Positions 7,244-25,775 of a stretch of DNA of 64,000 nt are shown here, piece after piece (position 1 is the stretch's first letter; each line of letters begins with the position of its first letter). The notes below the pieces were generated by a model. It saw only the letters and a list, made by a program, of their open reading frames with translations. It was not told the origin of the DNA and made no database searches. The DNA is from Thermoanaerobaculia bacterium (GTDB taxonomy: Bacteria; Acidobacteriota; Thermoanaerobaculia; Gp7-AA8). The position numbers and the translations under genes are program-made. The stretch lies in contig DATAJY010000005.1 of assembly GCA_036261885.1 (NCBI GenBank), positions 152,720 through 216,719 of the forward strand. Reading direction: 5' to 3'.

Positions 7244-8614
7244 TCACGGCGCCTGCCACCGCCCGTTCACCAGCGCCCTGGCGTGCAGATCGACTTCGGC
7301 CAGCCACGCGCCGCGCGTACCGACGCGGCTCAGCGGGCCGAATGAGATCGGCGGCGTCAGGGCCGTCGGGACGTTGTAGAAACCCTCCAGCGTCTCGACG
7401 AGTTTCTCGCGCGAGAGATCGCGGCCGGCGCGGCGCAATGCCTCGGCCAGAACTTTCGCGGCCGTCAGCGCCGCCGCGGCGGTCTGCGGATTCGCATCGG
7501 CGCGCGGCGTGAGCGTCTGCAACTCGCGAATGCCGGCGGCGGTGAGATGCGACGGCGCGGAAGGAAGCGCGACGACGAGCCGTCGATCGAGCGCGGCGGG
7601 AGCGGAGAAGAGCGCCTCGCCGGCGAATGACGACGGCACGAGGATGCGCGGCGGATCCGGAAACGTGGCCGCGGCGCGCAGCACTTCGTCGAGACGATTG
7701 GACGCGAGCAGCACGTTCTTCGCGTTGCGCATCGCATCGAGCGGCGTGGTGCTCTGCACTTCGAGCACGTCGTTTTCCGCGAACGCGCGCAAGGCCGCGA
7801 GCTCCTGCGCGGAACTGCCGAGGAGACGAAAGAGATATCGCTGCTCTGCCGCGTCGCCGGAGAAGGCGGCGATCGTCGGAAGCTCGCGCGATTCGAGCCA
7901 CGGCGCGAGCGACTCTTCCGCGCCGAGGAGCGAGCTGGCCGTGAGTGCGAACGGCTGCTCGGTGTCGAGAAACGTCTGCGCGGCGTCGCGGCGCTGAGTC
8001 GTCGCTGCGGGAAGCTCCGTGAAGCAGAGGTCGATGCGGCGGCCGTACAGGCCGCCCGCGCGATTGATGCTTTCGAAGAAACCGGAGACGACGTCGCGCA
8101 CGACGGCGGCGCGCGTGCGGTCGGGGGAGAGCAGCACGCCGATGCGGATCGCGTCGTCGGACAAACCGGGATCGCTGACGATGCCGAGCGTCTGCAGGTA
8201 GGCGACGAGATCGTCGGCATCGCGCGCCGACATCCGATAGCGCGGCATGACGCGATCGAGCTCGTTGCCGGCCGGATCGATGCCCATGGTGATGGCGCGC
8301 TTCAGGGTCGACGGCGTGTACGGCGGGTGCGTGCGCGACCCGATCGCATACGTTTTCGTCAGCTCGCTCCACTGCAGATTCGAAGGCTTCACGCCTCCTT
8401 CCGCGTTTCCGCGTCCGTCGTAGTCGTGGCAGTTCACGCAGCGCAGGACCGTCGCCGGAATGACCATCGTTCCTTCCGCGTCGGTGACCGCGTCGATGGC
8501 CGAGGAGCCTTCGCCGCGCACGTAGATCTTCTTGCCGTTCCGCGCATCGGCAGCGGTGGCCGTCAGCGCCAGCGCCAGCGTCGACGTCAGCAGCACGGCC
8601 GCAAGGCGCTTCAT
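7244..8614 (-). CDS. secreted cytochrome c domain fused to a periplasmic solute-binding (Peripla_BP_6/LivJ-like) domain (456 aa)
   Basis: Internal ATG at 8614 gives signal peptide 'MKRLAAVLLTSTLALALTATAADA' then haem motif 'CVNCH'. The remainder resembles type-I periplasmic binding proteins. The ATG overlaps the upstream SCO1 stop (ATGA). The 717-aa upstream extension in the ORF track is Arg-rich junk. Confidence 0.65.
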   Translation of the reverse strand: MKRLAAVLLTSTLALALTATAADARNGKKIYVRGEGSSAIDAVTDAEGTMVIPATVLRCVNCHDYDGRGNAEGGVKPSNLQWSELTKTYAIGSRTHPPYTPSTLKRAITMGIDPAGNELDRVMPRYRMSARDADDLVAYLQTLGIVSDPGLSDDAIRIGVLLSPDRTRAAVVRDVVSGFFESINRAGGLYGRRIDLCFTELPAATTQRRDAAQTFLDTEQPFALTASSLLGAEESLAPWLESRELPTIAAFSGDAAEQRYLFRLLGSSAQELAALRAFAENDVLEVQSTTPLDAMRNAKNVLLASNRLDEVLRAAATFPDPPRILVPSSFAGEALFSAPAALDRRLVVALPSAPSHLTAAGIRELQTLTPRADANPQTAAAALTAAKVLAEALRRAGRDLSREKLVETLEGFYNVPTALTPPISFGPLSRVGTRGAWLAEVDLHARALVNGRWQAP

Positions 8615-9723
8615 GGCGAGGCCGGAACGGCCGGTGCAGGCGCGGGATCGTCGACCACCGATTTCACGACGTCGATCACGGCATCGATGCCGGCCACGCC
8701 GAGGGCTTTTTTCCAGAGACCGGTGCGATCGTTGCCGATGAGGAAGAGATTCGAGTGGCCGTCGCGATTTTCGGCGAAGAGGCCGACGCGGCGGAGTGCG
8801 GCGTTCACCTGGTCGGGCGTTCCGCTGAGGAAATACCAGCCGTTCTTCGCTTCGAGCTGCGTGGCCAGCGCTTTGAGTTTCGGCGGGGTGTCGTTCTCGG
8901 GATCGACGGTGATGGAGATCAGCACGAGGTCGCGGCCGAGGCGATCGGCGAAGCGGTTCTGCATCGCGCGATAGGCGCTGGCCATGATCGGGCAGGTGGC
9001 TTTGCATTCGGCGAAGAACGCGTTCATCACCACCGTGCGTCCGTGCAGGAGATCGCGATAGAGATCGACCGTCTTGCCGTTTTGATCGACGAGCGGCAAC
9101 GTGCCGAAGTACTGCGCGGCGGGACTCTGCGCGTTGCTCGACGCGGCGGTCGCCGCAACACTCGAGGCGGTGCGTTCCTTTTCGAGCGACTGCAGCGCCT
9201 CCGCGATTTTCGCCGGCGCGGTGAAGCCGTCCATCCGCTGCCAGCGGCCGGTGCGATCGTCGCCGATGACGATGAGCGGCCCGTGATCGGTCTTGTCGGG
9301 AGTGAACGCGCCGACCGATTTGAGCAGCGTGTCGATCTCGTTCGGCTCGCCGGTGACGAGCGTCCAGCCGGGTTGGCCGCCGAGACGCGTGCGCCACGCT
9401 TCGAGCCGCGCCGGCGTGTCGTTCGGTGCGTCGAGCGTGATCGAGAGCAGCGTGATGTCTTTCGCGGAGTCGCCGAGGAGAGACTGCACCTTCGCGAACG
9501 TCGCACCGAGGGTCGGGCAGATCGTCGTGCAGCTGGTGAAGATGAAGTTGATGGCGACGATGCGATCCTTCACCAGCTCGGTGTAGAAACGCTTCGAGGC
9601 TCCGCCCTGATCGACGACGGAGACGTCGGCGATGCGCATCGGCGAATCGACGGAATCGCCGAAGGCGAGCGGTGCGCAGGCGAGCAGCGTGGCAGCGAGC
9701 AGCGATCGTTTGAAGTGGCGCAT
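8611..9723 (-). CDS. tandem SCO1/SenC-family copper chaperone / thiol-disulfide oxidoreductase (two thioredoxin-like domains, 370 aa)
   Basis: Signal peptide 'MRHFKRSLLAATLLACAPLAFG'. Two CxxxC copper-binding motifs ('FTSCTTICP' and 'FAECKATCP'), each with downstream His. Characteristic 'DH..L.LIG.DG' segments appear twice. Confidence 0.75.
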   Translation of the reverse strand: MRHFKRSLLAATLLACAPLAFGDSVDSPMRIADVSVVDQGGASKRFYTELVKDRIVAINFIFTSCTTICPTLGATFAKVQSLLGDSAKDITLLSITLDAPNDTPARLEAWRTRLGGQPGWTLVTGEPNEIDTLLKSVGAFTPDKTDHGPLIVIGDDRTGRWQRMDGFTAPAKIAEALQSLEKERTASSVAATAASSNAQSPAAQYFGTLPLVDQNGKTVDLYRDLLHGRTVVMNAFFAECKATCPIMASAYRAMQNRFADRLGRDLVLISITVDPENDTPPKLKALATQLEAKNGWYFLSGTPDQVNAALRRVGLFAENRDGHSNLFLIGNDRTGLWKKALGVAGIDAVIDVVKSVVDDPAPAPAVPASP

Positions 9724-10179: not shown

Positions 10180-11310
10180 ATGCGCAGGATGTTCGTCATC
10201 TCGTCGATGACGGGCGGGGGAGCGGCACGCACCACGGCGAACCTCGCCAATCACCAGGCTGCCTGCGGCGAATCGGTGCAGATCCTCACTCTGCATCAGC
10301 CGCAGCGGCCCGACGTCTATCCGCTCCATCCTTCCATCGAACGCCGTGACCTCGGCGAAGAAGCACCGAGCGCCGCGTCGATGTCGGCGGTGCTCGCGCG
10401 ATTCATGCAGCACTACCCTTCGCCGGCGGTGATCGCGCATGCGCCGGTGATCGCGCGGTTGCGCGATGCATTGCTCGAACGCACCTGCGACGTCGCCATC
10501 GGCATCGGTGATGTCACGAACATCCGCCTGCTCGTCGCCGCGCGCCACCTGCCGGTTCGCGTGATCGTCGCCGAGATGGCCGATCCCGGCGGGTATTCGA
10601 TTCTCGATTGGGAACTGCTGCGGAGACGCACCTATCCTCACGCCGAGGCGGTGGTCTGTCTGGCCGCGGAGTTCACGGAGTACTTCCGCCGGCGAGGCAT
10701 CGAGCGCGTGCATGCGATCGCCAGCCCGGTGCTGCCCGCGCCGCCGCGCCACGAAAAACGGCGCGAGCAGCTGATCGTTTCGATCGGACGGCTCGCGTGG
10801 GAGAAGAACCTCCCTCTTCTGCTGCAGGCGTTCTCCGACGTCGCGCCGCGGCATCCGGAGTGGCGGCTCGAACTGTGGGGCAACGGTCCGATGCGACGCG
10901 AGCTCGAAGGACTCGTGGCGTCGTTGCAGTTGCAGGACCGCGTTCGTCTGCCCGGCGTGACGCACGACGTTTATGAGCTGCTCGAACGCGCGGCGTTGTT
11001 CGCGATGACCTCGCGCACCGAGGGGCTGCCGAACGCGTTGTGTGAAGCGATGGCCGCGGGAGTTCCGGCGGTGGTCGCCGATTGTGGCGCGGGCGTGCGC
11101 ACCATCGTTCGCGATGGCATCGACGGCGTGCTGGTGGCACCTCGTCGCGTGGCCGTCGCCGGCGCCCTCGACGCGCTGATGCGGGACGACGAACGACGCG
11201 CGCGTCTGGCGAGCCGCGCGCCGGAAGTAGTCGAACGCTTCGCGATCGATCGCATTGCAGCAGAGTGGGACGAGCTTCTCATCTCCGGAAAGGTGGCCTA
11301 CGCATGTTGA
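10180..11310 (+). CDS. glycosyltransferase family 4 (376 aa)
   Basis: N-terminus 'MFVISSMTGGGAARTTANLAN' is GT4-like. C-terminal 'EGLPNALCEAMAAGVPAVVAD...GIDGVLV' matches the GT-B E-x7-E region. Confidence 0.8.
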   Translation: MRRMFVISSMTGGGAARTTANLANHQAACGESVQILTLHQPQRPDVYPLHPSIERRDLGEEAPSAASMSAVLARFMQHYPSPAVIAHAPVIARLRDALLERTCDVAIGIGDVTNIRLLVAARHLPVRVIVAEMADPGGYSILDWELLRRRTYPHAEAVVCLAAEFTEYFRRRGIERVHAIASPVLPAPPRHEKRREQLIVSIGRLAWEKNLPLLLQAFSDVAPRHPEWRLELWGNGPMRRELEGLVASLQLQDRVRLPGVTHDVYELLERAALFAMTSRTEGLPNALCEAMAAGVPAVVADCGAGVRTIVRDGIDGVLVAPRRVAVAGALDALMRDDERRARLASRAPEVVERFAIDRIAAEWDELLISGKVAYAC

Positions 11311-11972
11311 CCTCAGCAGAGAAAGCGGCTTACACGCAGGACGGTGTGCTTTTCCCGATTCACGTGTTGCGCGAGGGAGAGATCGCGCGCTATCGGGCCA
11401 AGGTCGAGCAGTCGCTCGCCAGCGATCCCGAGAACGCGAAGCTGCCGCACCTCAAATACGACTGGGCGCTCGAGCTGGCCACGCATCCCTTCGTCGTCGC
11501 GGCCGCGGAATCAGTGCTCGGCAGAACCGCCATCTGGGGCGCGATGGTGTTGCGCAAGGAGCCGCACAGCCGCAGCTTCGTCTCGTGGCATCAGGACGGC
11601 GCGTATCGCGAGTTCAAGCCGGGCGACTGCGTGACCGCGTGGATCGCGCTGGCCGACAGCGTGCCGGAGAACGGCTGCATGCAGGTCATCCGCGGCTCGC
11701 ATCACGCGCGCCTGCCGCACTTCGATCAGCCGGAGCCGGACAACATGATCCGCCTCGGCAAGCACATCGAATCGGAGATCGATCCGGCGATGATTACCGA
11801 CGTCGTGTTGCGCGCCGGCGAGATGTCGCTGCATCACAACGACATCGTGCACGGCTCGCAGCCGAACACCTCCGACCGCGCGCGCATCGGCTTCATCGTC
11901 CGCTTCATGAAGTACGGCCTGACGTGGACCGAGTGCCCGCTCGTGATTCCCGGAACGGTCACCGCCGCATGA
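11304..11972 (+). CDS. phytanoyl-CoA dioxygenase (PhyH) family Fe(II)/2-oxoglutarate oxygenase (222 aa)
   Basis: 'WHQDGAY...TAWIALADSVPENGCMQVIRGSH' and 'HHNDIVHGSQPN' His-Asp...His facial-triad pattern. The start overlaps the GT4 stop and the stop overlaps the next ATG (ATGA). Confidence 0.7.
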   Translation: MLTSAEKAAYTQDGVLFPIHVLREGEIARYRAKVEQSLASDPENAKLPHLKYDWALELATHPFVVAAAESVLGRTAIWGAMVLRKEPHSRSFVSWHQDGAYREFKPGDCVTAWIALADSVPENGCMQVIRGSHHARLPHFDQPEPDNMIRLGKHIESEIDPAMITDVVLRAGEMSLHHNDIVHGSQPNTSDRARIGFIVRFMKYGLTWTECPLVIPGTVTAA

Positions 11973-12967
11973 AGGTGTTGCTGACCGGCAATCACGTCTA
12001 TCCCGCCGCCGCGCAGAAGAGCGCCGGGCGCAGGGTGACGGAGCTGCCGTCCGGCTCCGCGCAGCGGCTGCAGGATCTGACCGCGCGCGGGCTGGTCGAG
12101 GCCGGACACGAAGTGGTCTACTACTTGACCAAACCGCCGGCGGGCCGTCCGCCGCGCGGCGTGACCGTCGTCGATCGCTGGATCACGAACGTCGACGTCG
12201 TGCACACGCACGTGCAGCGCGAAGAGTTCGAAGACGAAGCGCGCGCGCTGCAACTGCCGTTCATCTCCGTGCTGCATCTCCACCCGAGCTCGCGTCCGGC
12301 GGCGATGCCGGAGCCGCGCGAGGAGTGGGTGTATGTCTCCCGTTTTCTCGCCGAAGCGCTCGGCGGCACGCGTTTCGTGCACAACGGCGTCGATCCGGCC
12401 GACTACGCGTACTCCGAGGCGAAGGACGACTACGTGCTCTTCCTCTCGTCGATGGACTGGTGCGTGGAGAAAGGGCTCGACGTCGCCATCGCGCTCTCGA
12501 AGCGGATCGGCTTCCGCCTCGTCGTCGCCGGCAGCGCGCGAACCGAAGAGCGGCTCGCTGCGGCGATGGCGTTGTGTGCCGAGGGGGGAGCCGAGTACGT
12601 CGGCGACGTGCAGGGAAACGAAAAGGCGGAACTGCTCGCGGGTGCACGGGCGTTACTCCACCCTTCGCGCTATCAGGAAGCGTGTCCGCTCTCGATCATC
12701 GAGGCCCTGATGTCGGGCACGCCGGTGATCACGACGCCGTGGGGCGCATCGGCCGAGTTGATGACGCGTGACGCCGGCTTTCTCTGCCGCGACGAGAGCG
12801 ATTATGTCGATGCATTCGCGCGTCTCGGCGAGATCGCGCCGCGCGCGTGCCGCGACCACGCGCTGGCCCGATTTCACTACCGGCGCATGGTGGCCGGATA
12901 CCTGCGCGAGTACGAAACCGCCATCGGCGCGTTCACAACTGCGGGCGCTCATCCGTCAACTGAGTAA
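11969..12967 (+). CDS. glycosyltransferase, GT-B/GT4-like (332 aa)
   Basis: 'EACPLSIIEALMSGTPVITTPWGASAELM' is a GT4 C-terminal sugar-donor motif. The ORF track fuses this frame with junk upstream; the ATG at 11969 is coupled to the PhyH stop. Confidence 0.7.
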   Translation: MKVLLTGNHVYPAAAQKSAGRRVTELPSGSAQRLQDLTARGLVEAGHEVVYYLTKPPAGRPPRGVTVVDRWITNVDVVHTHVQREEFEDEARALQLPFISVLHLHPSSRPAAMPEPREEWVYVSRFLAEALGGTRFVHNGVDPADYAYSEAKDDYVLFLSSMDWCVEKGLDVAIALSKRIGFRLVVAGSARTEERLAAAMALCAEGGAEYVGDVQGNEKAELLAGARALLHPSRYQEACPLSIIEALMSGTPVITTPWGASAELMTRDAGFLCRDESDYVDAFARLGEIAPRACRDHALARFHYRRMVAGYLREYETAIGAFTTAGAHPSTE

Positions 12968-13056: not shown

Positions 13057-16000
13057 ATGCTCCGTCGCCCGGCCTTGTTCCTGTTGATCCTCGGCGCGCT
13101 CGTGCCGCTGGTGGCGCAGGCAGACAATCCCTGCACGCCCCAGAACACCACGCGAGCCGACGTGGTCGCGCTCGATCAGGCGTTCTACAACAATCGCCTC
13201 GGTGCCTTCCAATCGGGAGGCACGATCTACGCGCTGCGCCGCGACGTGGTCAGCAACGCCGGTGGAGCGAGCGCGCTCACGGCCGGCAAGGTGATGCTGC
13301 GTCCGGACAAGCGTCCGCGCCCGATCGTGCTGCGCGTCAACGAAGGGAGCTGCCTCGAGATCGCGTTCCAGAACCTCCTCGCTCCCGTGCCGCAGGTCTC
13401 GGTCTTTCCCGCCGCCTCACCGTGGGAAAACCAGAGCACGATGTCGAACGCCTACACCTCGACCGGCGGCGCGTCGACCGATCTGCAGAAATGGGGAACG
13501 CAGACCACCCAGGGACCGACGCGCTACGCCGGCGTGCACGTGATGGGCTTGAACCTCGTCAGTGCGAAAGACGGCAGCGGCGCGCCGATCGAGGCGATCG
13601 CCGCCGACGGCTCCTGGACCGGTGCGAACGACATCACCGCGAACGCGCGCGGCCCGCGGGCCAGCGGTCTCGTCGCACCAGGCGAGAAGATCACGTATAC
13701 GCTGTTCGCCCGCGAGAACTCCGAAGGCTCGTATCTGCTCTACAGCACCGGCGCGACGAATGGTGCGTCGCAGGATTTCGGCGGGCAGTTGATGCAGGGC
13801 CTCTTCGGCTCCGTCACCGTGCAGCCGGGAAGATCGGAGTGGTATCGCAGCCAGGTCACGCGCGATGAACTGCTCAAGGCGACGTACACCGCGGCGGGAC
13901 AGACGCTCACGCCGAGCAGCAAAGCGCCGGTGAAGATCAACGGCAAGAGCGCGAAAGTGTGGAACTGGAAGGTGTCGGCCACCGACACGCGGGAAGCGGT
14001 CCTGCTGAATGCGGACGGCGATCCGGTTTCCGGCAGCAGCAGCGCCTACCTCCACACCACGAAAGGACAGCCATACATCAACTACGGCGCCACCGATTCG
14101 ACGCGGCAATGCGGCGGCGAGCCGCTGCCGGTGCTGAAGATGACGAACGGAAAGGGCGAGATCTGCCACAGCGATCTCACCGCGATCATCACCGGCCCGA
14201 ACGCGGGTCTGGTGATCGATCCGCCGTACGCGGGCGTGCCGTCGACGCCGAATCCACGCGAGCCGTGGCGCGAGTTCGCCATCCACTATCACGACGATTT
14301 CCTCGTCACGCAGGCGTTCCCGCAACAGCAGCCGGGCAACAGTCTGGCCGGCACGCTGAACGCCGGCCGCGATTACTTCGCGATCAACTACGGCATCGGC
14401 GGCATCGCCGCGGAGGTGCTGGCCAATCGGCTCGGCGTCGGCCCGATGTATCAGTGCGCGACGTGCAAGTTCGAAGAGTTCTTTCTCAGCTCCTGGACCG
14501 TCGGCGACCCGGCCATGGTGGTCGACGTCCCGGCCAACAACGGCACCGGCACCGGACCGAAAGCGACCAAGGCGCTCTTTCCGGATGATCCGTCGAACGT
14601 CTACCACAGCTACGTCGGCGATCACGTGATCTTCCAGATCCTGCACGCCGGCACGAACATCACCCACGTGCATCACCTGCACGCGCAGCAGTGGCTGCAT
14701 TCGCCGCGCAATGCGAACAGCGCGTATCGCGACAGCCAGATGATCAGCCCGGGCGCGTCGTACACGCTCAACCACGTGTACAACGGCAGCGGCAACGTCA
14801 ACAAAACGGTCGGCGACTCGATCTTCCACTGCCACTTCTATCCGCACTTCGCGCAGGGCATGTGGTCGATGTGGCGCGTGCACGATGCGTTCGAAGCCGG
14901 CACGATCCTCAATGCCGACGGCACGGTGCGCAAGGGATGGAACCGCGCACTTCCGGACGGCGAGATCGCCAGCGGAACGCCGACGCCGGGCCTCGTGCCG
15001 CTGCCGACGATTCCGATGGCGCTGCCGCCGGCGCGCACGCAGATCGTCGACGTCACGATTCCGGGGCAGACCAAGCCGGTCGGTTACACGGTGCAGGTCC
15101 ATCCCGACGACAAGACCGCGACTCCGGGCTATCCGTTCTTCATTCCCGGCGTGGCCGGACAGCGCGCGCCGCATCCGCCGCTCGATCTCGCCTGGGACGA
15201 AGACGGCAACGGCAAGCCGCGCAAGGATTCGAAGGGCAACACGATTTATCTCGACGGCGGATTGCCGCGGCACATCTCGCTCTTCGATACCGACATCACC
15301 GAGAAGCACACGCGCTGGGACTTCACCAAAGACAACGGCGCGATCACGGCCGTGCAGCTGCCGGAGGATGGCACCGCGAGCGAGCGGCAGGCCATGACCG
15401 TGCACGAGCAGCGCAACCATCCGTCGTTCACGCCGGAAGGGAAGCCCGCCTCGTTCGTGCTCAACGGCATGAAGCGCAAGCACGGCGCGCCGTACGCGAA
15501 CCCGAACGTCAATCTCGACGGCACGCCGCACTGCAATGACGACGTGCCGCCGGCGATGGTGCTCGATCCGAAGGACGGCGAGCAGCCATGCCTGATCCGC
15601 TACAAGGCGGCGGCCATTCAGATCGACGCGGTCTTCAACAAGAAAGGATGGCATTACCCGCAGTCGCGCATCCTCTCGCTGTGGGGCGACGTGAAGGACA
15701 CGATGGCCAACAAGCGGATTCCGCAGCCATTCTTCTTCCGCGCGAACAGCGATCAGATCATCGAGTACTGGCACGCCAATCTCGTTCCGAACTACTACGA
15801 GCTCGACGACTTCCAGGTGCGTACGCCGACCGACGTCATCGGCCAGCACATTCACCTCGTGAAGTTCGACGTGACGTCGTCCGACGGCGCGGGCAACGGC
15901 TACAACTACGAAGACGGCACGTTCAGCCCCGATGAAGTGCGGGAGACCATCGAGGCCATCAATCAGTGTCCGGACCATCAGCCGTGCGCACAGTGCCCGG

Positions 16001-19000
16001 CCGGTCTGTTCCCGATGCTCTCGATCACCGGCAGCGGCGCGAAGCCGGGCGGCACGCGCACCTGCCTGAAACCGAAGGCGATTCCGTATTTCGGCGACGG
16101 TCCGGATGGACGCTGGGTCGGGGCGCAGGCGACGATTCAGCGCTGGGCCGCCGATCCGGTGTTCGGCGAGAAGCAGGCCGACAGTCTCATCGAATATCCG
16201 AAAGGCGAGCGCCGCATCGATCGCACGCTGCGCACGGTCTTCACGCACGATCACTTCGGTCCGTCGACGCATCAGCAGGTCGGGCTCTACGCCGGCCTGG
16301 TGGTCGAGCCGAAGCACACCTACTGGCTCGACGGCGAAACCGGCGAGCATTACGGCTCGAACCAGAATCGCCCCATCGGTGCAAACGGACTGGCGCCGTT
16401 CGACGGCGGTCCGACCGGATGGCACGCGACGATCCTGCATCCCAACAAGCCGAGCGATGACTATCGCGAGTTCGTGCTCGAGTTCCAGGACCGGCAGCTC
16501 GCCTACACCTCGAGCAGCATCGGCAAGGCCGTGCCGTACGACGGAGGCACCTCGGCGTACACCGGCTGGTCCGATCCGCAGTTCGCGATCTCGCCGCCGG
16601 CCACCGGCACCGGGCCGCGTCCGCCGTGGCCGGTGCTGGTCACGAACTCCTTCGCCACCGGCTCGTACTCGGTCAACTATCGCAACGAGCCGCTGACGTT
16701 CCGCGCGTTCGGCGGCACGCCGAACCAGACGCCGAACGCCGCCGGCTCGGATCTCTCGAATGCCTTTGCCTCGATTCCGCGGCTCGATCCGCAACTGAAC
16801 ACGCAACCGGCCGCCGGCTCACCGATCACCACGACCGGCGCGAATGCGTTCACGTTCCCGCCGCCGTTCCGCGGCGCCGGTGCGAACGATCCGTACACGC
16901 CGCTGCTGCGCGCGTATGACGGAGACAACGTACAGCTGCGCACGCTCGTCGGCGCGCACATGTCGCCGCACTTCTTCAACGTGCACGGCGTGAACTGGCT
17001 CTTCGAGCCGGCCGAGGAGGACTCGGGGTGGAGATCGGCGCAGGGGATGGGCATCTCCGAGCACTACGAAATGATCTTCACCATGCCGCGCACCGGCGGC
17101 CCGACGTCGGACTATCTCTATGAAGCGAGCTCCGACACCACCGGCCGGAAGAACGGCAACTGGGGTCTGCTGCGCGCGTACAGCCAGGATCAGACCGACC
17201 TGCAGCGCCTGCCGAACAATCCGGCCACCGCACCGGCCACGGCCGGACCGCCGGCGGGATGTCCGGGGCCCGACGTCGCTCCGGCGCGCGAGTACCGCGT
17301 GCGGGCGATGACCATCCAGCAGGCCACCGGCGCGAACTGGCTCACGTACAACGCGCGTGGTGCGGCCGGCAAGAACGGCGGCGAACAGCTCGTCGATCCG
17401 AACGCGATCATCTATGTCGATGAAGCGGATCTCGTGGACGGGAAGCTGAAGAACCCGAACCGCGTCGAGCCGCTGATTCTCCGCGCGAAAGCGGGCGAGT
17501 GTGTTTCGGTGACGCTCACGAACTCACTGCCGGGCGATACCGTCGGTGCAACGGTGACGACGACGCCGCCGTGGCCGACGCAGTTCACGCTCACCGCGAC
17601 GCAGAACGCCATCGACGACATGCTGGTCTTCTTCGTCGGCGCCGGTTCGACCACGCCGCGCCAGAGCTCGTACAGCACCGAGTTCCAGCTGCTCTTCAAC
17701 ACCAACACGTTCGGCTATCAGCTTCCGCCCTCGGGTGTCGGCAGCAGCACCACGAACAACGGCAACAACACCTACACCATCGTCTCCGGCAACACGTACA
17801 TCGTTTCGCGCACGAGCAACACCACGCTCAACGTCACGGTGGCGCAGCCGGTCGCGATCAGCACGTCGAAAAACGTCGGCCTGCATGCATCGCTGCTCGC
17901 GTATGACGTGCGCAGCAACGACGGCATGAACGTTGGCGCGAATCCGACGCAGACGCTCACGCCCGGCCAGTCGCGCACCTACAAGTGGTACGCGGGGCAG
18001 TACTTCCTCGAAAACGACGTCTGGACGCCGCGGCCGGTTGAGTACGGCTCGGTCAATCTCAACCCCTCCGATCCGCTGATGCAGCATCCGAAGGGACTCA
18101 TCGGCGCGCTGATCATCGAGCCGCGGACCACGACGAAGTGGACCGTCGACGAGAACTCGAACGCCTCCGCGCGCGTCGAGTACACCGAAGACGGCGCGGC
18201 GAAGTCGTTCCGCGAATTCGTGGCCATCATCTCCGACGACATCATCGGCATGCAGAAGACCGGCGGCCAGCCGGTGCAGGCCGCGCCGGCGGTGACCGTC
18301 GACGATGGCAGTGGCGGTGTGGACAATCCGGTCGACAGCGGCAGCAGCGGCACGGCCGATGCCGGCAAGACCATCACCATCTCCGGCGTGGTCATCAACG
18401 GCACGATCGCCTGGGCGCTCGACGGCACGCAGAAGCCGAACAACACCACGTACGACGTTTCGCCCGGCGACACCGTCGTCTTCAACGTGACGAACGGGAA
18501 GCACGGCGTGGCGTTCCTGCCGGGACAGCCGGCGTTCGACGCCTTCTTCGATGTCGTCTCCGGCGGCAATCTCCTGAAGGCCAGCCCGAACGGCATCACC
18601 GGTTCATGGGGCACCGACGCGTTCAACGGACCGGCGTCTCTGGTCACGCTGCGCGTGAAATCGACCGCCACCGGCAACCTGCCGTTCGAATGCACGCAGC
18701 ACAAGACGAACATGGCCGGCACGCTGCGCGTCGTTTCGAGCAGCGGCAGCACGCTCGCCGGCGACATCGTCAACAGCCAGGTGGTGTGGGCGTTCAACGG
18801 CGTTCCGAAGGCGAACAACTCGACGTACAACGTGAAGGCGGGCGACATCATCACGGTGACGTCGCAGAACGGTCTGCACGGCATCGCCTTCCTGCAGGGG
18901 CAGACCGCATTCGAAGCATTCTTCGACGTGCTGTCGGGCGGGAGCCTGCTGATCCCGAATCCGAACGGCATCACCGGCTCGTGGGGCACGCTGCCGCAGA

Positions 19001-20826
19001 ACGGTCCGGTCACGCTGCTCACGCTGCAGGTGAAGGCGACGGCCACCGGCAAGCTGCCGTTCGAATGCTCGCAGCACAAGCAGAACATGGCCGGCACGTT
19101 CCAGATCAGCGGGGCGCCCACGCCGACGCACACCATCACCGGCGATCTCGTCAACGGCACGCCGACCTGGCTGCTCGACGGGAAGGCGATGCCGAACAAC
19201 AGCTCCTATCCGATGAAGCCGGGCGACATCATCCTGTTCGACGTGAAGAGCGGCACGCACGGCGTGACGTTCACGCAGGGACAGACGGCCTTCAACAACT
19301 TCTTCAACGTCCTCGACGGCGCGAGCAAGTTGATCGCGAATCCGAACGGCATCACCGGCGGCTGGGGCACGCCCGCGGTCGCGGGACCGGCCACGCTGAT
19401 CACCATTCAGGTGAAAGCGAGCGCCAAGGGGACGCTCATCTTCTGGTGCACGCAGCACAAGCAGAACATGGCCGGCACGTTCTCGGCCGGTCCGCAGACG
19501 TGGAACGTCACCGGCGACAACGCGCCCGGTCCGGTGTGGAAGCTCAATGATGCAGTGCAGTCCAACAACGCCTCGTATCCGATCAGCTCCGGCGACACGG
19601 TGGTCTTCTCCGTCGCCACCGGCCGTCACGGCGTGGCGTTCATCACCGGCCGTGCGGCGTTCGACAACGTCTTCGACGTCGTCTCGAGCACCGCGCCGCT
19701 GAAAGACAACCCGAACGGCATCGCCGGCTCTTACGGCACCGATGCCTTCAACGGACCGCAGGCGCTGATCACGGTGAAAGTGAAGCCGAATGTCGCGCCG
19801 ACGAACCTGCCGTTCTGGTGCACGCAGCACAAGGCGAACATGGCCGGTACGTTCAAGGTGAACGGCGGCGTGCCGACGCTCACCGCGGTGCCGACGCAGT
19901 TCACGCGCGCGTTCAACTACAAGACCGAGCCGCTGCAGTATCGCTACGTCGATCAGAACGCGTTCCTCAACCCCGCCTCGTATCCGCTCGGCATCATGCG
20001 CGCGGTCTCGAACCAGCTCGTGCTGGCCGATCCGCAGACTCCGGTGTTCGCGGCCGCGGCAGGGGAGCCGGTGCGCATTCGCATGCTCCATCCGGCCGGC
20101 CTCGACGAACAGGTGCTGACGCTGCACGGTCACGCGTGGCAGGAAGAGCCGTACGAGAACGGTACGCAGTCTTCCGTCATCGGGCACAACAAGTTCTCGC
20201 AATACCTCGGCTCGCGCGATGCGTTCGGTCCGAACGTCTCGTGGGACCTCGTGATCGACGAGGCGGGCGGGCGCGCGCAGACGAAGGGCGATTACATCTT
20301 CCGCACCTTCATCGGCACCGACTTCCTCTTCGGCCTCTGGGGCATCCTGCGGGTCGGCCATGCGAATCGCGACGTCGTCACCGTGAACTACTTCCCGCCG
20401 CCGAGCGCCGGCTCGAATTTCCCGGCCGGCCTGCGCGGCACGACCACCGTCAACACGTCGACCGGCCGCATGGCCGATCGCATCGAGATCTACGCCGGCT
20501 CTTCGGCCAGCGGCACGCCGTTCGACACGGTGCGCATCGACAAGTCGACCGGCTTCTGGTCGTCGACGAAGACGATGCCGAATCCGCCGCTCTTCGTGCA
20601 GTCGGTGTCGTGCTCCGATGCGAACTGCACGTCGAAGACGCCGTGGGGCTCGCGCGTGATGGAGACGTACATCCCGACCACGACCATTCCGGCCGGCAGC
20701 ATTGCGCAGCCGATGATCCAGCTGCCGCCGTCACCGATCGATCTGTTCAAGCCGGCGCGTCCTGACACGATCGTGCAGCCGCAGCCGACGACCACTCCGA
20801 CGCACGAGCATCCGCCCGAACACTGA
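13057..20826 (+). CDS. giant secreted multicopper-oxidase-like protein carrying four tandem cupredoxin (type-1 copper) domains (2589 aa)
   Basis: GAGGAGG RBS and signal peptide 'MLRRPALFLLILGALVPLVAQA'. MCO copper motifs: 'IHYHDD' (HxH), 'HVHHLH' (HxxHxH) and 'HCHFYPHFAQGM' (HCHxxxHxxxxM), with a second set 'GQHIHLVKFD', 'THDHF' and 'LTLHGHAW'. Residues ~1770-2270 hold four ~125-aa repeats, each with 'G.HGV.F', 'NPNGI.G.WGT' and 'F(E/W)C(T/S)QHK.NMAGT', the His/Cys/His/Met ligand set of a blue-copper site. Confidence 0.8.
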   Translation: MLRRPALFLLILGALVPLVAQADNPCTPQNTTRADVVALDQAFYNNRLGAFQSGGTIYALRRDVVSNAGGASALTAGKVMLRPDKRPRPIVLRVNEGSCLEIAFQNLLAPVPQVSVFPAASPWENQSTMSNAYTSTGGASTDLQKWGTQTTQGPTRYAGVHVMGLNLVSAKDGSGAPIEAIAADGSWTGANDITANARGPRASGLVAPGEKITYTLFARENSEGSYLLYSTGATNGASQDFGGQLMQGLFGSVTVQPGRSEWYRSQVTRDELLKATYTAAGQTLTPSSKAPVKINGKSAKVWNWKVSATDTREAVLLNADGDPVSGSSSAYLHTTKGQPYINYGATDSTRQCGGEPLPVLKMTNGKGEICHSDLTAIITGPNAGLVIDPPYAGVPSTPNPREPWREFAIHYHDDFLVTQAFPQQQPGNSLAGTLNAGRDYFAINYGIGGIAAEVLANRLGVGPMYQCATCKFEEFFLSSWTVGDPAMVVDVPANNGTGTGPKATKALFPDDPSNVYHSYVGDHVIFQILHAGTNITHVHHLHAQQWLHSPRNANSAYRDSQMISPGASYTLNHVYNGSGNVNKTVGDSIFHCHFYPHFAQGMWSMWRVHDAFEAGTILNADGTVRKGWNRALPDGEIASGTPTPGLVPLPTIPMALPPARTQIVDVTIPGQTKPVGYTVQVHPDDKTATPGYPFFIPGVAGQRAPHPPLDLAWDEDGNGKPRKDSKGNTIYLDGGLPRHISLFDTDITEKHTRWDFTKDNGAITAVQLPEDGTASERQAMTVHEQRNHPSFTPEGKPASFVLNGMKRKHGAPYANPNVNLDGTPHCNDDVPPAMVLDPKDGEQPCLIRYKAAAIQIDAVFNKKGWHYPQSRILSLWGDVKDTMANKRIPQPFFFRANSDQIIEYWHANLVPNYYELDDFQVRTPTDVIGQHIHLVKFDVTSSDGAGNGYNYEDGTFSPDEVRETIEAINQCPDHQPCAQCPAGLFPMLSITGSGAKPGGTRTCLKPKAIPYFGDGPDGRWVGAQATIQRWAADPVFGEKQADSLIEYPKGERRIDRTLRTVFTHDHFGPSTHQQVGLYAGLVVEPKHTYWLDGETGEHYGSNQNRPIGANGLAPFDGGPTGWHATILHPNKPSDDYREFVLEFQDRQLAYTSSSIGKAVPYDGGTSAYTGWSDPQFAISPPATGTGPRPPWPVLVTNSFATGSYSVNYRNEPLTFRAFGGTPNQTPNAAGSDLSNAFASIPRLDPQLNTQPAAGSPITTTGANAFTFPPPFRGAGANDPYTPLLRAYDGDNVQLRTLVGAHMSPHFFNVHGVNWLFEPAEEDSGWRSAQGMGISEHYEMIFTMPRTGGPTSDYLYEASSDTTGRKNGNWGLLRAYSQDQTDLQRLPNNPATAPATAGPPAGCPGPDVAPAREYRVRAMTIQQATGANWLTYNARGAAGKNGGEQLVDPNAIIYVDEADLVDGKLKNPNRVEPLILRAKAGECVSVTLTNSLPGDTVGATVTTTPPWPTQFTLTATQNAIDDMLVFFVGAGSTTPRQSSYSTEFQLLFNTNTFGYQLPPSGVGSSTTNNGNNTYTIVSGNTYIVSRTSNTTLNVTVAQPVAISTSKNVGLHASLLAYDVRSNDGMNVGANPTQTLTPGQSRTYKWYAGQYFLENDVWTPRPVEYGSVNLNPSDPLMQHPKGLIGALIIEPRTTTKWTVDENSNASARVEYTEDGAAKSFREFVAIISDDIIGMQKTGGQPVQAAPAVTVDDGSGGVDNPVDSGSSGTADAGKTITISGVVINGTIAWALDGTQKPNNTTYDVSPGDTVVFNVTNGKHGVAFLPGQPAFDAFFDVVSGGNLLKASPNGITGSWGTDAFNGPASLVTLRVKSTATGNLPFECTQHKTNMAGTLRVVSSSGSTLAGDIVNSQVVWAFNGVPKANNSTYNVKAGDIITVTSQNGLHGIAFLQGQTAFEAFFDVLSGGSLLIPNPNGITGSWGTLPQNGPVTLLTLQVKATATGKLPFECSQHKQNMAGTFQISGAPTPTHTITGDLVNGTPTWLLDGKAMPNNSSYPMKPGDIILFDVKSGTHGVTFTQGQTAFNNFFNVLDGASKLIANPNGITGGWGTPAVAGPATLITIQVKASAKGTLIFWCTQHKQNMAGTFSAGPQTWNVTGDNAPGPVWKLNDAVQSNNASYPISSGDTVVFSVATGRHGVAFITGRAAFDNVFDVVSSTAPLKDNPNGIAGSYGTDAFNGPQALITVKVKPNVAPTNLPFWCTQHKANMAGTFKVNGGVPTLTAVPTQFTRAFNYKTEPLQYRYVDQNAFLNPASYPLGIMRAVSNQLVLADPQTPVFAAAAGEPVRIRMLHPAGLDEQVLTLHGHAWQEEPYENGTQSSVIGHNKFSQYLGSRDAFGPNVSWDLVIDEAGGRAQTKGDYIFRTFIGTDFLFGLWGILRVGHANRDVVTVNYFPPPSAGSNFPAGLRGTTTVNTSTGRMADRIEIYAGSSASGTPFDTVRIDKSTGFWSSTKTMPNPPLFVQSVSCSDANCTSKTPWGSRVMETYIPTTTIPAGSIAQPMIQLPPSPIDLFKPARPDTIVQPQPTTTPTHEHPPEH
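18370..19870 (+). repeat. four in-frame tandem repeats (~375 bp each) encoding cupredoxin-like domains inside the giant MCO gene
   Basis: Peptide repeats starting 'TITISGVVINGT', 'SGSTLAGDIVNS', 'APTPTHTITGDL' and 'PQTWNVTGDNAP', each ending in '...LPFxCTQHKxNMAGTF'. The DNA-level similarity is visible, e.g. recurring 'aatccgaacggcatcaccgg' and 'cagcacaag..gaacatggccggcacg'. Confidence 0.7.
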
Positions 20827-22671: not shown

Positions 22672-22690
22672 CGCTCGTTCGCGTGGCGTG

Positions 22691-23437
22691 ATGAACGACA
22701 CGATTCAATCGCTCTGGATCGGCGGCGCGCTCTCGCCGATGGAGCAGCTCGCGCTCGCGTCGTTTCTTCATCACGGCCATCGCGTCGATCTCTACGTGTA
22801 CGACGAAGTGCGGCACGTCCCGGCCGGGACGACGCTGCGCGATGCGAACGAGATCCTTCCGCGCGAGCGGATCTTTCGCTATCGCGAGCACGACACCGTC
22901 TCCGGCTTTTCGAACTTCTTCCGCTATCGCCTGCTGCTCGAGCGCGGCGGGTGGTGGGTCGATACGGATGTCGTCTGTCTGCGCGCGTTCGATTTCGCGG
23001 ATGACCATGTGTTCGCGAGCGAGCCGACGCGCGACGGCAGCACGCCGGCATCGTGTGTGATCCGCGCGCCGGCCGGCGGCGCCGCCATGCAACTCGCCTG
23101 GGAACGCTGCGATGCGCGCGATGCCTCATCGTTGCGCTGGGGCGAAACCGGACCGCGGCTGGTGAAGGAGATCGTCGCGGAATGCGGGCTCGAATCGTTC
23201 GTGCAGCCGCCGGAGGTTTTCTGTCCGCTGCCGTTCTTCGCCTGGCGCACGATCGTCGAAGGTCCGCCGCCGTCATTCGACGCGCCGACGCGGGCGGTGC
23301 ATCTCTGGAACGACATGTGGCGGCGCGGCGGAGCGAGCAAGGACGACGTTCCGGAAGGAACGTTGTACGCGCAGCTCATCGAACGAGTTCTGGGCGGGAG
23401 AGCAGCGCGTAGCGCTCCACATCGTCCACGTGATTGA
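22691..23437 (+). CDS. glycosyltransferase with DXD motif (Gly_transf_sug-like, 248 aa)
   Basis: 'LLLERGGWWVDTDVVCLR' resembles the conserved DXD region of the alpha-1,4/1,6 sugar transferase family. The 3' end overlaps the convergent 712-aa gene by ~60 bp. Confidence 0.55.
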   Translation: MNDTIQSLWIGGALSPMEQLALASFLHHGHRVDLYVYDEVRHVPAGTTLRDANEILPRERIFRYREHDTVSGFSNFFRYRLLLERGGWWVDTDVVCLRAFDFADDHVFASEPTRDGSTPASCVIRAPAGGAAMQLAWERCDARDASSLRWGETGPRLVKEIVAECGLESFVQPPEVFCPLPFFAWRTIVEGPPPSFDAPTRAVHLWNDMWRRGGASKDDVPEGTLYAQLIERVLGGRAARSAPHRPRD

Positions 23438-25514
23438 GCACGCTCACGATGAGCAGCTCGATCCGTTCGTCCTTGTAGCCGCGTGCGCGCAACATCGTCG
23501 CCGCTTCCGCGCGCCACCGCGCGATCTCCGCATCTCCCTCCGGACGCTTCTCCATCCATGCGCGCACGAGCTCATCCCAGTCGCGCAGTTCGCGTACGTA
23601 GCCGCGCGTGACCATCTTGCGGAGCGCTTCGTTTTTCTCGACCGCGTCGTGGGCCTGAAAGTACGCCTCGCGATAGGACTGCCGGAACGCCCGCATTCCC
23701 TCTTCCGCCGTTTCGTCGCTGACGCGATAGATGCTGCGCAGCGCGGCGACTTCGCCGGGCACGCGGCGACGGCCGGCCGTGCCGCCGAGGACGTGCACGA
23801 GATCGTGACGCATGCCGCGGAAGCCGTGATTGGCGGTCCATTGATCGTAGTCGCGCCCTGGAATCGAGACCGAGTCGTGATCGACGAAGTGCACGCGCAC
23901 GCACCAGTCGCCGTTGCGAAAGACATTGCGCAGGCCGACGTTGCGCGTGACGAACGATTCCCCTTCGCTCCACATCCGCAGCGCGGTGTAGAACGCGAAG
24001 TAGTGGCCGATCTGGGAGAGCACATCGCAGAACGTCGCGTCGAGCTCCGGGCGATTGAGCGCATAGGCCTCATCGAGATACTGCGCGTACGTCGCGCCGG
24101 AAGAGGTGCGCGGCGGGAGATAGTGCGGGACGATCTCACCGAAAAGCGCATCCGCGAAACGGCGGCGGTCGTCATCCGTTGCTTCGAGCTGTAATCCCTT
24201 CGTGAAGTACTGCTCGTCGCCGTCGGGCGCCAGGTACGCGGCCAGCCGATCGAAGCGAAACGAGCTCGATCCGATCACGAACGCCTGCTCGGGTGAAGTG
24301 ACGGCCAGCCAGCGGCCGAGCGTTTCGTAGCCGCCGTGATCTCCGGCCGTGGCGTGCAGGCGATCGCTTTCGAGACGCGGCAGCGCCTTCTTCATCGCCT
24401 CGCGCATCGCGCCGAAGCCCGGGCCGTACGTCTGCGCGTTTCCGAAATACGAGACCAGCGACACGTCGCCGCGCGGTGTCGGGATCTCGAGAATCGCGGA
24501 GAGCCCGACGATGCGCGAGCCCGGTCCTTCCACTCCGTACGCGAGGCGATGCAGGCGCGCGAGAAAGCTCGCCGACGACAGCTCCCAGCGCACGAGGCGT
24601 CCGGTCGAGCCGCCCCAGAAGTGATGGTGCACCGGCACCGGATGCTTCTGGTTCTCATGCTGATAAACGCAGTCGATGACGCGGTCCCCGCGCGCGCCGG
24701 CGCGCTTGAGCTCGAGCTCGACGTCGCTGCCTGGCGGCTTGATCACCAGCGCCACGGTGCCGAGCGGATATTCGACGAGCGAATGAATGGTTGACGGTGT
24801 TTCGTCCGCGACCCAGTAGATCACCGGCTCGCTCATCAGCAGTTCGAGTATCTCGCGCTCGTACGGCGGCAGGCCCTGCTTCGCGCGGCGTGCCTCATCG
24901 AGATTGTAGGGATCGGTCTTCGGCATCTCCGGCATTCCGGAGCTCGTGCGCACGACTTGCATGATCCGGGCGACGACGTCTTCGGGCGAAAGCAGATAGC
25001 GCGAGAAAACGAGACGGCACTCGTGCCGCGAGTGATCCACGAAATCGGGTGCGCCGCGAAGAGTGTCGCGTTCGAGCGCCGCATGCACGTGATCGAATCG
25101 TCCGATGCGGCGGCGCAGTTCGCCGGCGAAGTGCAGCACGGCCACCGACGAGTAGCCTTCCTGCAGTACGACGCGCCGCACCTGCTCGAGCGAGTCGGTG
25201 AGGAGTTGCAGGCCGTGGAGAAAGGCGAGCAGATCGTCGGGGCGGGCGATGCGCAGGAACTCGTGTTCGAGCGCGAGACAGGCCAGGCGCCGCACGCCCC
25301 ACTCGTCGCCGCGTGTGCCGCGGGCGACCTCCATCAGCTCCGCCGCGTAGGCGCGATCGTGCGTGTTGCGCACGAGAAACGGCGCGAGCAGCTCCGCACC
25401 GCGGTCCGCGCACTCCGCGCCGAGGGATGCGCGCACGATCCGTCGCAGGCGCTCCGAGCCCGTACTAACGAGGAACGGCGCCGAACGGCGCCGCTCCTTT
25501 TTCACCGCGTTCAC
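23376..25514 (-). CDS. large conserved hypothetical protein (712 aa), function unknown
   Basis: Long GC3-biased frame. No motif I can assign with confidence. GTG start here, so the start is uncertain. It lies 3 bp downstream of the Lys-rich gene. Confidence 0.5.
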   Translation of the reverse strand: MNAVKKERRRSAPFLVSTGSERLRRIVRASLGAECADRGAELLAPFLVRNTHDRAYAAELMEVARGTRGDEWGVRRLACLALEHEFLRIARPDDLLAFLHGLQLLTDSLEQVRRVVLQEGYSSVAVLHFAGELRRRIGRFDHVHAALERDTLRGAPDFVDHSRHECRLVFSRYLLSPEDVVARIMQVVRTSSGMPEMPKTDPYNLDEARRAKQGLPPYEREILELLMSEPVIYWVADETPSTIHSLVEYPLGTVALVIKPPGSDVELELKRAGARGDRVIDCVYQHENQKHPVPVHHHFWGGSTGRLVRWELSSASFLARLHRLAYGVEGPGSRIVGLSAILEIPTPRGDVSLVSYFGNAQTYGPGFGAMREAMKKALPRLESDRLHATAGDHGGYETLGRWLAVTSPEQAFVIGSSSFRFDRLAAYLAPDGDEQYFTKGLQLEATDDDRRRFADALFGEIVPHYLPPRTSSGATYAQYLDEAYALNRPELDATFCDVLSQIGHYFAFYTALRMWSEGESFVTRNVGLRNVFRNGDWCVRVHFVDHDSVSIPGRDYDQWTANHGFRGMRHDLVHVLGGTAGRRRVPGEVAALRSIYRVSDETAEEGMRAFRQSYREAYFQAHDAVEKNEALRKMVTRGYVRELRDWDELVRAWMEKRPEGDAEIARWRAEAATMLRARGYKDERIELLIVSVLNHVDDVERYALLSRPELVR

Positions 25515-25517
25515 GGC

Positions 25518-25775
25518 TCAGCGCTTGCCGCCCTTGCGACCGCTCGTGCTCTTGCCACCCTTGCTGCTCTTCCCGCCTTTGCTGCTCTTGCCGCCGCCCG
25601 CGGTCTTGCCGGTGGTCTTCTTCGCGCCTTTTTTCTTCTTCTTCCCGCCGCCGCCGGCGAGTGCTTTCGAGAGCGCAAGAAACATCTGCTCAGCGACCGT
25701 TCGCGAGACGATGACCGTCACGTTGTCGACCGCTTTTCCTTTGGTACTGCCTGTCGTCGATTTTCCAGTAGCCAT
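25518..25775 (-). CDS. small lysine/glycine-rich basic protein, histone H1-like low-complexity tail (85 aa)
   Basis: ATG at 25775 with 'gaaaggggaag' RBS. 'MATGKSTTGSTKGKAVDNVTVIVSRTVAEQMFLALSKALAGGGGKKKKKGAKKTTGK...GGKSSKGGKSSKGGKS'. An alternative GTG start at 25817 would overlap the GT2 stop. Confidence 0.5.
   Translation of the reverse strand: MATGKSTTGSTKGKAVDNVTVIVSRTVAEQMFLALSKALAGGGGKKKKKGAKKTTGKTAGGGKSSKGGKSSKGGKSTSGRKGGKR

Follow-up and report, generated by a model that had tools for sequence, protein, structure and literature searches.

Four cupredoxin units, encoded head to tail and in frame at nt 18370-19878 of the window (by window we mean the whole 64,000-nt stretch of DNA that was analysed), lie within the gene of a giant multicopper oxidase, immediately before the last conserved domain of the protein. 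We consider it fairly probable that the array is a set of built-in type-1 copper electron-transfer modules, which work as partners of the oxidase and originate from an old insertion of a cupredoxin cassette. The first-pass annotation of this DNA had described four in-frame repeats of ~375 bp at 18370-19870 and had equated each of them with one blue-copper domain. The repeats were found essentially where they had been placed, and the domain assignment agrees with the predicted cupredoxin fold and with an invariant His/Cys/His/Met set, from which copper binding would follow.

The host oxidase and its gene neighbourhood

The array is carried by a 2589-aa ORF (13057-20826, plus strand) with an intact reading frame, and its source is an uncultured soil acidobacterium (Thermoanaerobaculia, Acidobacteriota). 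An NCBI entry from a Thermoanaerobaculia MAG matches it with 100% identity; this public record bears the label "hypothetical protein" and lists no precomputed Pfam domains. The top match among curated families is NCBIfam NF041487 (MnxG), which scores 1041.5 bits over aa 333-1391. This is far under the equivalog cutoff of the model (3100 bits), thus the substrate of the oxidase is uncertain.

Reading of the translation suggests a Sec signal peptide (MLRRPALFLLILGALVPLVAQA, followed by D; 13057-13122, plus strand). A motif scan located the multicopper oxidase copper motifs HxxHxH (aa 537-542, HVHHLH) and HCHxxxHxxxxM (aa 591-602, HCHFYPHFAQGM) at 14665-14862, and Pfam Cu-oxidase_2 matches weakly at aa 507-608. 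The same scan found two HxH motifs, HIH (aa 931-933) and HDH (aa 1064-1066), at 15847-16254, also on the plus strand, which are presumed to be their partners in the trinuclear centre. The conserved C-terminal domain of the oxidase (aa 2274-2547; 19876-20697, plus strand), with an HGH motif at aa 2357, follows directly after the array. With the NF041487 match and the readable copper motifs, the earlier description of the host gene as a giant oxidase held.

The gene of a 612-aa YncE-like beta-propeller protein (Pfam PF21783; 20833-22671, plus strand) begins 7 nt past the stop codon of the oxidase. It occupies the equivalent position in the loci of relatives, where the order downstream of the oxidase, this gene and then another glycosyltransferase gene, is kept. 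A look-up of contigs coding for precisely this oxidase protein had no match on record, and the neighbourhoods compared are those of relatives. A gene of the SCO1/SenC copper-chaperone family (Pfam PF02630, E 6e-33; 8611-9723, minus strand) is an upstream neighbour, retained in the related loci L001 and L003. The upstream order kept in relatives is a minus-strand cytochrome-c/periplasmic-binding protein gene together with SCO1/SenC, then GT4, PhyH and GT1 genes, and then the oxidase. Since glycosyltransferase genes flank the oxidase, we counted N-glycosylation sequons; they were enriched neither in the whole 2589-aa protein (26 vs. 22.6 +/- 4.3) nor in the array (11 vs. 7.0 +/- 2.3).

The mnxG operon of Pseudomonas putida GB-1 has among its members genes of the beta-propeller lactonase and SCO families (PMC8218464), and this operon context is also found at the host locus. 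On the basis of the NF041487 match, the copper motifs and these common neighbours we call the host PpMnxG-like. It appears to be a secreted giant multicopper oxidase of this kind; by this name we claim neither equivalog status nor manganese oxidation.

The repeated units and their putative copper ligands

In a direct-repeat search the four units had start-to-start spacings of 375, 381 and 369 nt, each a multiple of three, and in-register identities to the first copy of 77, 72 and 61%. The boundaries of the units were set by a profile made from the four translated units. Autocorrelation of the DNA gave peaks at lags of 375 (45%), 381 (43%), 756 (51%) and 1125 (56%). These are far over the in-frame background (32.3 +/- 2.7%), and the N-terminal part of the oxidase gene reached a maximum of 34%, thus the periodicity is real at the DNA level. 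The first-pass annotation had stated that its reading would fall if self-alignment revealed no more than a weak similarity of the proteins and no periodicity of the DNA, and this is not what we found.

The accompanying claim, that the repeats share long identical DNA strings, was overstated, and so was the risk of collapse deduced from it. Pairwise DNA identity between the four units is 68-72% in gapped alignments (protein identity 53-56%), and the longest exact strings common to units measure 12-32 nt and belong to the copper-ligand loop and a PNGITG motif. Tandem Repeats Finder (TRF), run on the window, did not call a ~375-nt array even at a minimum score of 30, because the units are too diverged. 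High identity combined with long exact tracts between neighbours, as in VNTRs, is absent from the four units of the window and was seen only in the unit 1/unit 2 (u1/u2) pairs of relatives.

The insertion starts with a Gly/Ser/Asp-rich linker of 32 aa (aa 1740-1771; 18274-18369), which is absent from P0007, a homologue with zero units. The four units follow, all on the plus strand: unit 1 at aa 1772-1897 (18370-18747), unit 2 at aa 1899-2023 (18751-19125), unit 3 at aa 2024-2144 (19126-19488) and unit 4 at aa 2148-2274 (19498-19878). The units are supported by the profile and by AlphaFold2, unit 1 also by fold comparison. The putative copper ligands are H1816, C1879, H1882 and M1886 in unit 1, H1941, C2004, H2007 and M2011 in unit 2, H2068, C2131, H2134 and M2138 in unit 3, and H2191, C2255, H2258 and M2262 in unit 4. 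Each unit contains one cysteine, and it is the putative ligand (Cys1879, 2004, 2131 and 2255).

The AlphaFold2 model of unit 1, for which an alignment of 32 diverse units served as input, has a pLDDT of 96.7 and a pTM of 0.89, and shows a cupredoxin fold (Greek-key beta-sandwich). When it was compared with the PDB using Foldseek, the top ranks were taken by amicyanin, the N-terminal cupredoxin domain of Hyphomicrobium nitrite reductase, pseudoazurin, plastocyanin and auracyanin, all with a probability of 1.0; domains of ceruloplasmin and factor VIII were also among the structural matches. Only seven residues are invariant in the 32-unit alignment: W15, H45, G46, G81, C108, H111 and M115. In a profile-sequence alignment of marginal significance (E 0.19), H45 falls on the His of fern plastocyanin and C108-x2-H111-x3-M115 on its Cys/His/Met loop.

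The searches that rely on sequence families were mostly silent about the units. None of those in the window matched Pfam PF00127 or PF13473 at E<=1, NCBIfam likewise had no match in the units, and PF00127 recognized one of the 32 family units (E 0.022). A search of the PDB with the unit profile found no solved structure by sequence beyond the marginal plastocyanin matches. It is the cupredoxin fold together with the conservation of the ligands that identifies the unit as one blue-copper domain. We infer that each unit binds one copper through the His...Cys-x2-His-x3-Met set.

In the AlphaFold2 model of the whole four-unit array (mean pLDDT 85, pTM 0.42) the single domains are predicted with confidence and their mutual arrangement is not. 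The model resembles beads on a string, with linkers of 5-8 residues. With a pTM of 0.42, a fixed wire geometry or a defined Cu-Cu geometry is unsupported.

Insertion, age and copy number of the array

Comparison with P0007 (63% identity) indicates how the array is built into the protein: aa 1-1739 of the host correspond to aa 1-1733 of this homologue, and the C-terminal domain, aa 2274-2547, corresponds to its aa 1737-2018 (63% identity). In this alignment the four units and the 32-aa linker stand out as one clean insert of 534 aa, directly ahead of the last conserved domain. Homologues with 60-63% identity to the host and without any array show that the array is dispensable for the core enzyme. 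The insertion site is not the same in the whole family. In P0067, a Bradyrhizobium-type homologue, a related array is found at another junction, after approximately aa 1251 of the host, and in further homologues units are located C-terminally or close to aa 485.

Units were counted in the 120 best of 2748 homologues (E<=1e-10). No unit was found in 59 of these proteins, one unit in 18, two in 8, three in 19, four in 13 and five in 3. The full H-C-H-M set is present in 132 of the 158 units of the 120 best homologues (84%), the others being degenerate (e.g. HSDM, DSKM), which implies that the fold can persist without copper. None of the four ligands varies in any unit of seven close relatives.

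A filter-free search of 1.84 billion representative proteins with the unit profile produced 78 matches, mostly fragments of MnxG-like proteins, and included a few complete secreted proteins of three tandem units (e.g. P0130 and P0138). A word-indexed homologue search with the profile returned four proteins only, again mostly fragments, and a scan of the genome collection with unit alignment A2 returned two Thermoanaerobaculia loci only. P0196, apparently a standalone unit of 116 aa, turned out to belong to an MnxG-like gene that is fragmented. The units are a small, divergent cupredoxin subfamily, which travels as a module.

In a neighbour-joining tree of the units of the six closest proteins (70-80% identity overall) the units formed the clades u1, u2, u3 and u4, i.e. 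they grouped by position and not by genome. It follows that the four-unit array is older than the split of these lineages and that each unit has been retained. Orthologous units of the window and P0002 have dN/dS values of 0.18-0.59; with GC3 at 88%, synonymous sites are almost saturated between the paralogous units of the window. These comparisons show that the array arose by an old tandem domain duplication, and that the units have since diverged and been kept under purifying selection as positional orthologues; this orthology by position extends over seven close relatives.

Copy number among the close relatives is either four (the window protein, P0002, P0004 and P0005) or five (P0003, P0006 and the protein of locus L006, which comes from a Thermoanaerobaculia MAG and is 91.5% identical to P0003). 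In all three five-unit proteins the fifth unit is a duplicate of unit 1. DNA identity between u1 and u2 is 96.0% in P0006 (locus L001), with an exact run of 124 nt and a TRF call of period 381 and 2.0 copies; it is 91% in P0003 (locus L002) and 94% in L006. The u1 orthologues of L002 and L006 are 96.3% identical, thus closer to each other than to their u1/u2 paralogues, and the two loci have junction differences in common, which suggests that they share one duplication. The duplication in P0006 is separate, because its four-unit sister P0005 does not have the fifth unit. The three five-unit relatives therefore seem to have experienced two independent recent duplications of unit 1. The recent duplicates have dN/dS values of 0.09-0.16, indicative of purifying selection. 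The wider unit tree contains more lineage-specific expansions, such as u2/u3 of P0049 and a two-unit block copied inside P0028. In other branches of the family, too, single units have been duplicated or lost, and units have been inserted at different sites.

It was suggested in the first-pass annotation that the copy number may vary between strains, and that the array may be mis-assembled. The former suggestion was right as far as relatives are concerned, which differ both at close range (four or five units) and across the 120 best homologues (zero to five); present-day slippage in the window did not find support. It is highly improbable that the DNA of the array is currently unstable and prone to recombination, or that an error of assembly makes its copy number in this genome unreliable. 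What speaks for instability is found in the relatives, where unit 1 was duplicated recently, its copies having 91-96% DNA identity and exact runs of up to 124 nt. The units of the window, which are 68-72% identical, share at most 32 nt of exact sequence and escape TRF, argue against it, and so do the intact frame and the orthology of the units by position in independent NCBI, ENA and JGI contigs. The same four-unit state recurs in these independent assemblies, and mis-assembly or collapse is not borne out. The array is stable in this genome and presents no assembly hazard.

Possible roles of the array

The electron-transfer role that we favour is inferred from the closest structural relatives of the units, namely plastocyanin, amicyanin, pseudoazurin and the tethered cupredoxins of HdNiR (the nitrite reductase of Hyphomicrobium denitrificans) and archaeal MCO4, which have this function. 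The copper of each unit would cycle between Cu(I) and Cu(II) in one-electron transfers. The array would collect, relay or store electrons between a reducing substrate or external donor (Mn(II) or another) and the oxidase, where they would reach its own T1 (Cys592)/trinuclear site and O2 would be reduced. The number of T1 sites per polypeptide would rise from one to five, and copy number would set the reach or the capacity of the array. We are much more doubtful about a stronger version, which takes up the possible electron wire of the first-pass annotation: the tandem cassette would be a copper wire, a chain of T1 sites carrying electrons over several nm between a solid outside the cell or a remote donor (e.g. 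the Mn-oxide surface or a redox partner) and the O2-reducing centre. We think it improbable. If it were true, the array would be to copper what the conduits of multihaem cytochromes are to haem, and duplication and loss would tune its length (0-5 units).

It is possible, if unlikely, that the units are extra substrate-oxidising entry sites for Mn(II), Fe(II) or an organic reductant, and that copy number multiplies the points of entry, similarly to ceruloplasmin. The presence of ceruloplasmin and factor VIII domains among the structural matches would fit such a role, as would the conservation of the ligand set (complete in the 32-unit alignment and in 132 of 158 family units) and the differences in unit number between lineages. 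However, the standalone cupredoxins with the closest folds (plastocyanin, amicyanin and pseudoazurin) carry electrons and do not oxidise metals, we identified no conserved acidic patch for metal binding in the units, and electrons entering there would still have to travel to the trinuclear site, so that a relay would again be needed. We regard it as equally unlikely that the units serve chiefly as structure: a stalk or spacer of beta-sandwiches, which holds the C-terminal domain in place or fastens the enzyme to the cell surface or to mineral, with copper sites that are incidental or purely stabilising. The short linkers of the beads-on-a-string model, the ligand-less units (HSDM, DSKM) of some homologues and the existence of otherwise similar enzymes without an array are what a stalk would predict, but it would leave unexplained why the ligands are invariant in seven close relatives and complete in 84% of family units, why the sole cysteine of each unit is the ligand, and why recent duplicate copies are under purifying selection. 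That the array is a store, buffer or chaperone, which feeds copper to the sites of the oxidase together with the neighbouring SCO1/SenC protein, seems very unlikely to us. The SCO1/SenC gene is conserved nearby, and four extra copper sites on an enzyme that needs at least four coppers might suggest such a function, but one copper per 125 aa would make a poor store. Moreover, type-1 sites of the His2-Cys-Met kind hold their copper tightly and buried, and are suited to electron transfer, not to exchange.

The host combines elements that are known separately. PpMnxG-type oxidases, single pendant cupredoxins on MCO4 and nitrite reductases, and six-domain proteins with several T1 sites have all been described, and the architecture of the array is not categorically new. 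None of the literature that we searched describes a tandem array of carrier-type cupredoxins, internal and variable in number, in MnxG-like or other multicopper oxidases. Like MnxG of P. putida GB-1 (NF041487), the host is a giant secreted multicopper oxidase with equal copper motifs and with beta-propeller and SCO-family neighbours, but it scores 1041 bits against the cutoff of 3100 and originates from Acidobacteriota (Thermoanaerobaculia). It is ~49% identical over aa 34-1491 to a 1951-aa homologue, which we take as Pseudomonas-type from its length only. The 534-aa insertion with the four cupredoxins is missing from this homologue as well as from the zero-unit homologues.

Archaeal MCO4 (Nitrosopumilus maritimus Nmar_1354, PDB 9CCK) has a two-domain multicopper oxidase core with one dangling C-terminal cupredoxin, which is metallated and held by a 15-residue tether (PMC11761707), whereas the host has an MnxG-like core and four tandem internal cupredoxins before its last domain. 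The three-domain nitrite reductase of Hyphomicrobium denitrificans (PDB 2DV6, 6TFO), which ranks near the top when the unit is compared by Foldseek, has a T1 cupredoxin fused at its N-terminus, and this domain serves it as a built-in electron donor. It differs from the host in being a nitrite reductase with a T1/T2 core and in having a single fused domain and no tandem array. The host shares with these enzymes a T1 cupredoxin tethered to a copper oxidoreductase core, and departs from them in that it is not a two-domain core with a single terminal cupredoxin.

In ceruloplasmin and the six-domain blue proteins the T1 sites are in integral multicopper oxidase domains, which form a fixed triangular array, whereas the extra T1 sites of the host would be in small carrier-type cupredoxins inserted as a cassette of variable number. 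The ligand loop of the units, C-x2-H-x3-M, lies between those of amicyanin (x2/x2) and plastocyanin (x2/x4), and the plastocyanin spacing can also be seen in the unit-profile alignment. Compared with the single-domain cupredoxins of PF00127 (plastocyanin, amicyanin, pseudoazurin), the units are ~35 residues longer, and in the AlphaFold2 model this includes a helix at 53-59.

The mechanism of Pseudomonas MnxG-type Mn oxidases is poorly understood. The present analysis points to a large, mostly metagenomic branch of the MnxG family, in which 0-5 divergent T1 cupredoxin modules, invisible to Pfam, occupy several insertion points; automated annotation misses these domains, as the "hypothetical" label of the protein and its empty list of precomputed Pfam domains illustrate. 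Nature would thereby offer a series of enzymes with one to six type-1 coppers, including close relatives without an array, which lends itself to experiments on the influence that tethered cupredoxins have on electron delivery, electron storage or substrate range in multicopper oxidases.

Duplication, ligand loss and wider occurrence of the cupredoxin unit

In L002 and L006, two related loci whose oxidases carry five tandem cupredoxin units each, the second unit is a recent duplicate of the first. The second unit of L006 is closer to its own neighbour, the first unit (94.2%), than to the orthologous second unit of L002 (91.8%; L006 8623-9378, L002 7739-8494). Partial gene conversion between the two young copies may account for this closeness, or the second unit of L002 may be changing faster. 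In the homologue P0028 a block of two units is present twice, at aa 1175-1428 and 1939-2193, with units 1 and 4 and units 2 and 5 forming sister pairs, which suggests that, within the gene, the block was duplicated or the cassette transposed.

Among the MnxG-like homologues the copper ligands have been lost in 26 of 158 cupredoxin units, the putative T1 ligand set H-C-H-M being replaced by variants such as H-S-D-M or D-S-K-M; examples are the C-terminal units of P0036, P0038, P0040 and P0041. Thus, in some lineages the cupredoxin fold survives without a T1 site. P0130 (402 aa, with a Lys-rich tail at its end) and P0138 (364 aa, with a shorter C-x2-H-x2-M loop) are complete secreted proteins built solely from three units in tandem that belong to this cupredoxin subfamily, hence the module occurs outside oxidases too.

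Genes flanking the oxidase

Upstream of the cluster and opposite to it, on the minus strand, lie a gene for a cytochrome-c / periplasmic-binding-protein fusion and a SCO1/SenC gene (window 7247-9723), which are kept in L001 and L003. Their products may serve the oxidase as partners in copper delivery and redox reactions. On either side of the oxidase and beta-propeller genes (10180-12964 and 22688-23437) stand three genes for glycosyltransferases (GT4, GT1, Gly_transf_sug) and one for a PhyH-family dioxygenase, and the order of these flanking genes is identical in relatives. We looked for enrichment of N-x-S/T sequons in the oxidase and found none.

At L005 1342-12351 (ENA contig_4004) an MnxG-like gene, with a SCO1/SenC gene on one side and a beta-propeller gene on the other, is fragmented into numerous short ORFs, either because it is a pseudogene or because the assembly is rich in frameshifts.

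The 712-aa ORF and its adjacent repeat

A minus-strand ORF of 712 aa (window 23376-25514) had no Pfam match. Just past its start, at 25524-25595, there is an 18-nt tandem repeat of ~3.8 copies with the consensus CTTGCTGCTCTTGCCACC. Matched by length, strand and position, a 712-aa minus-strand gene is found at the equivalent place beside the oxidase cluster in L003 and L004, and at the locus edge in L002.
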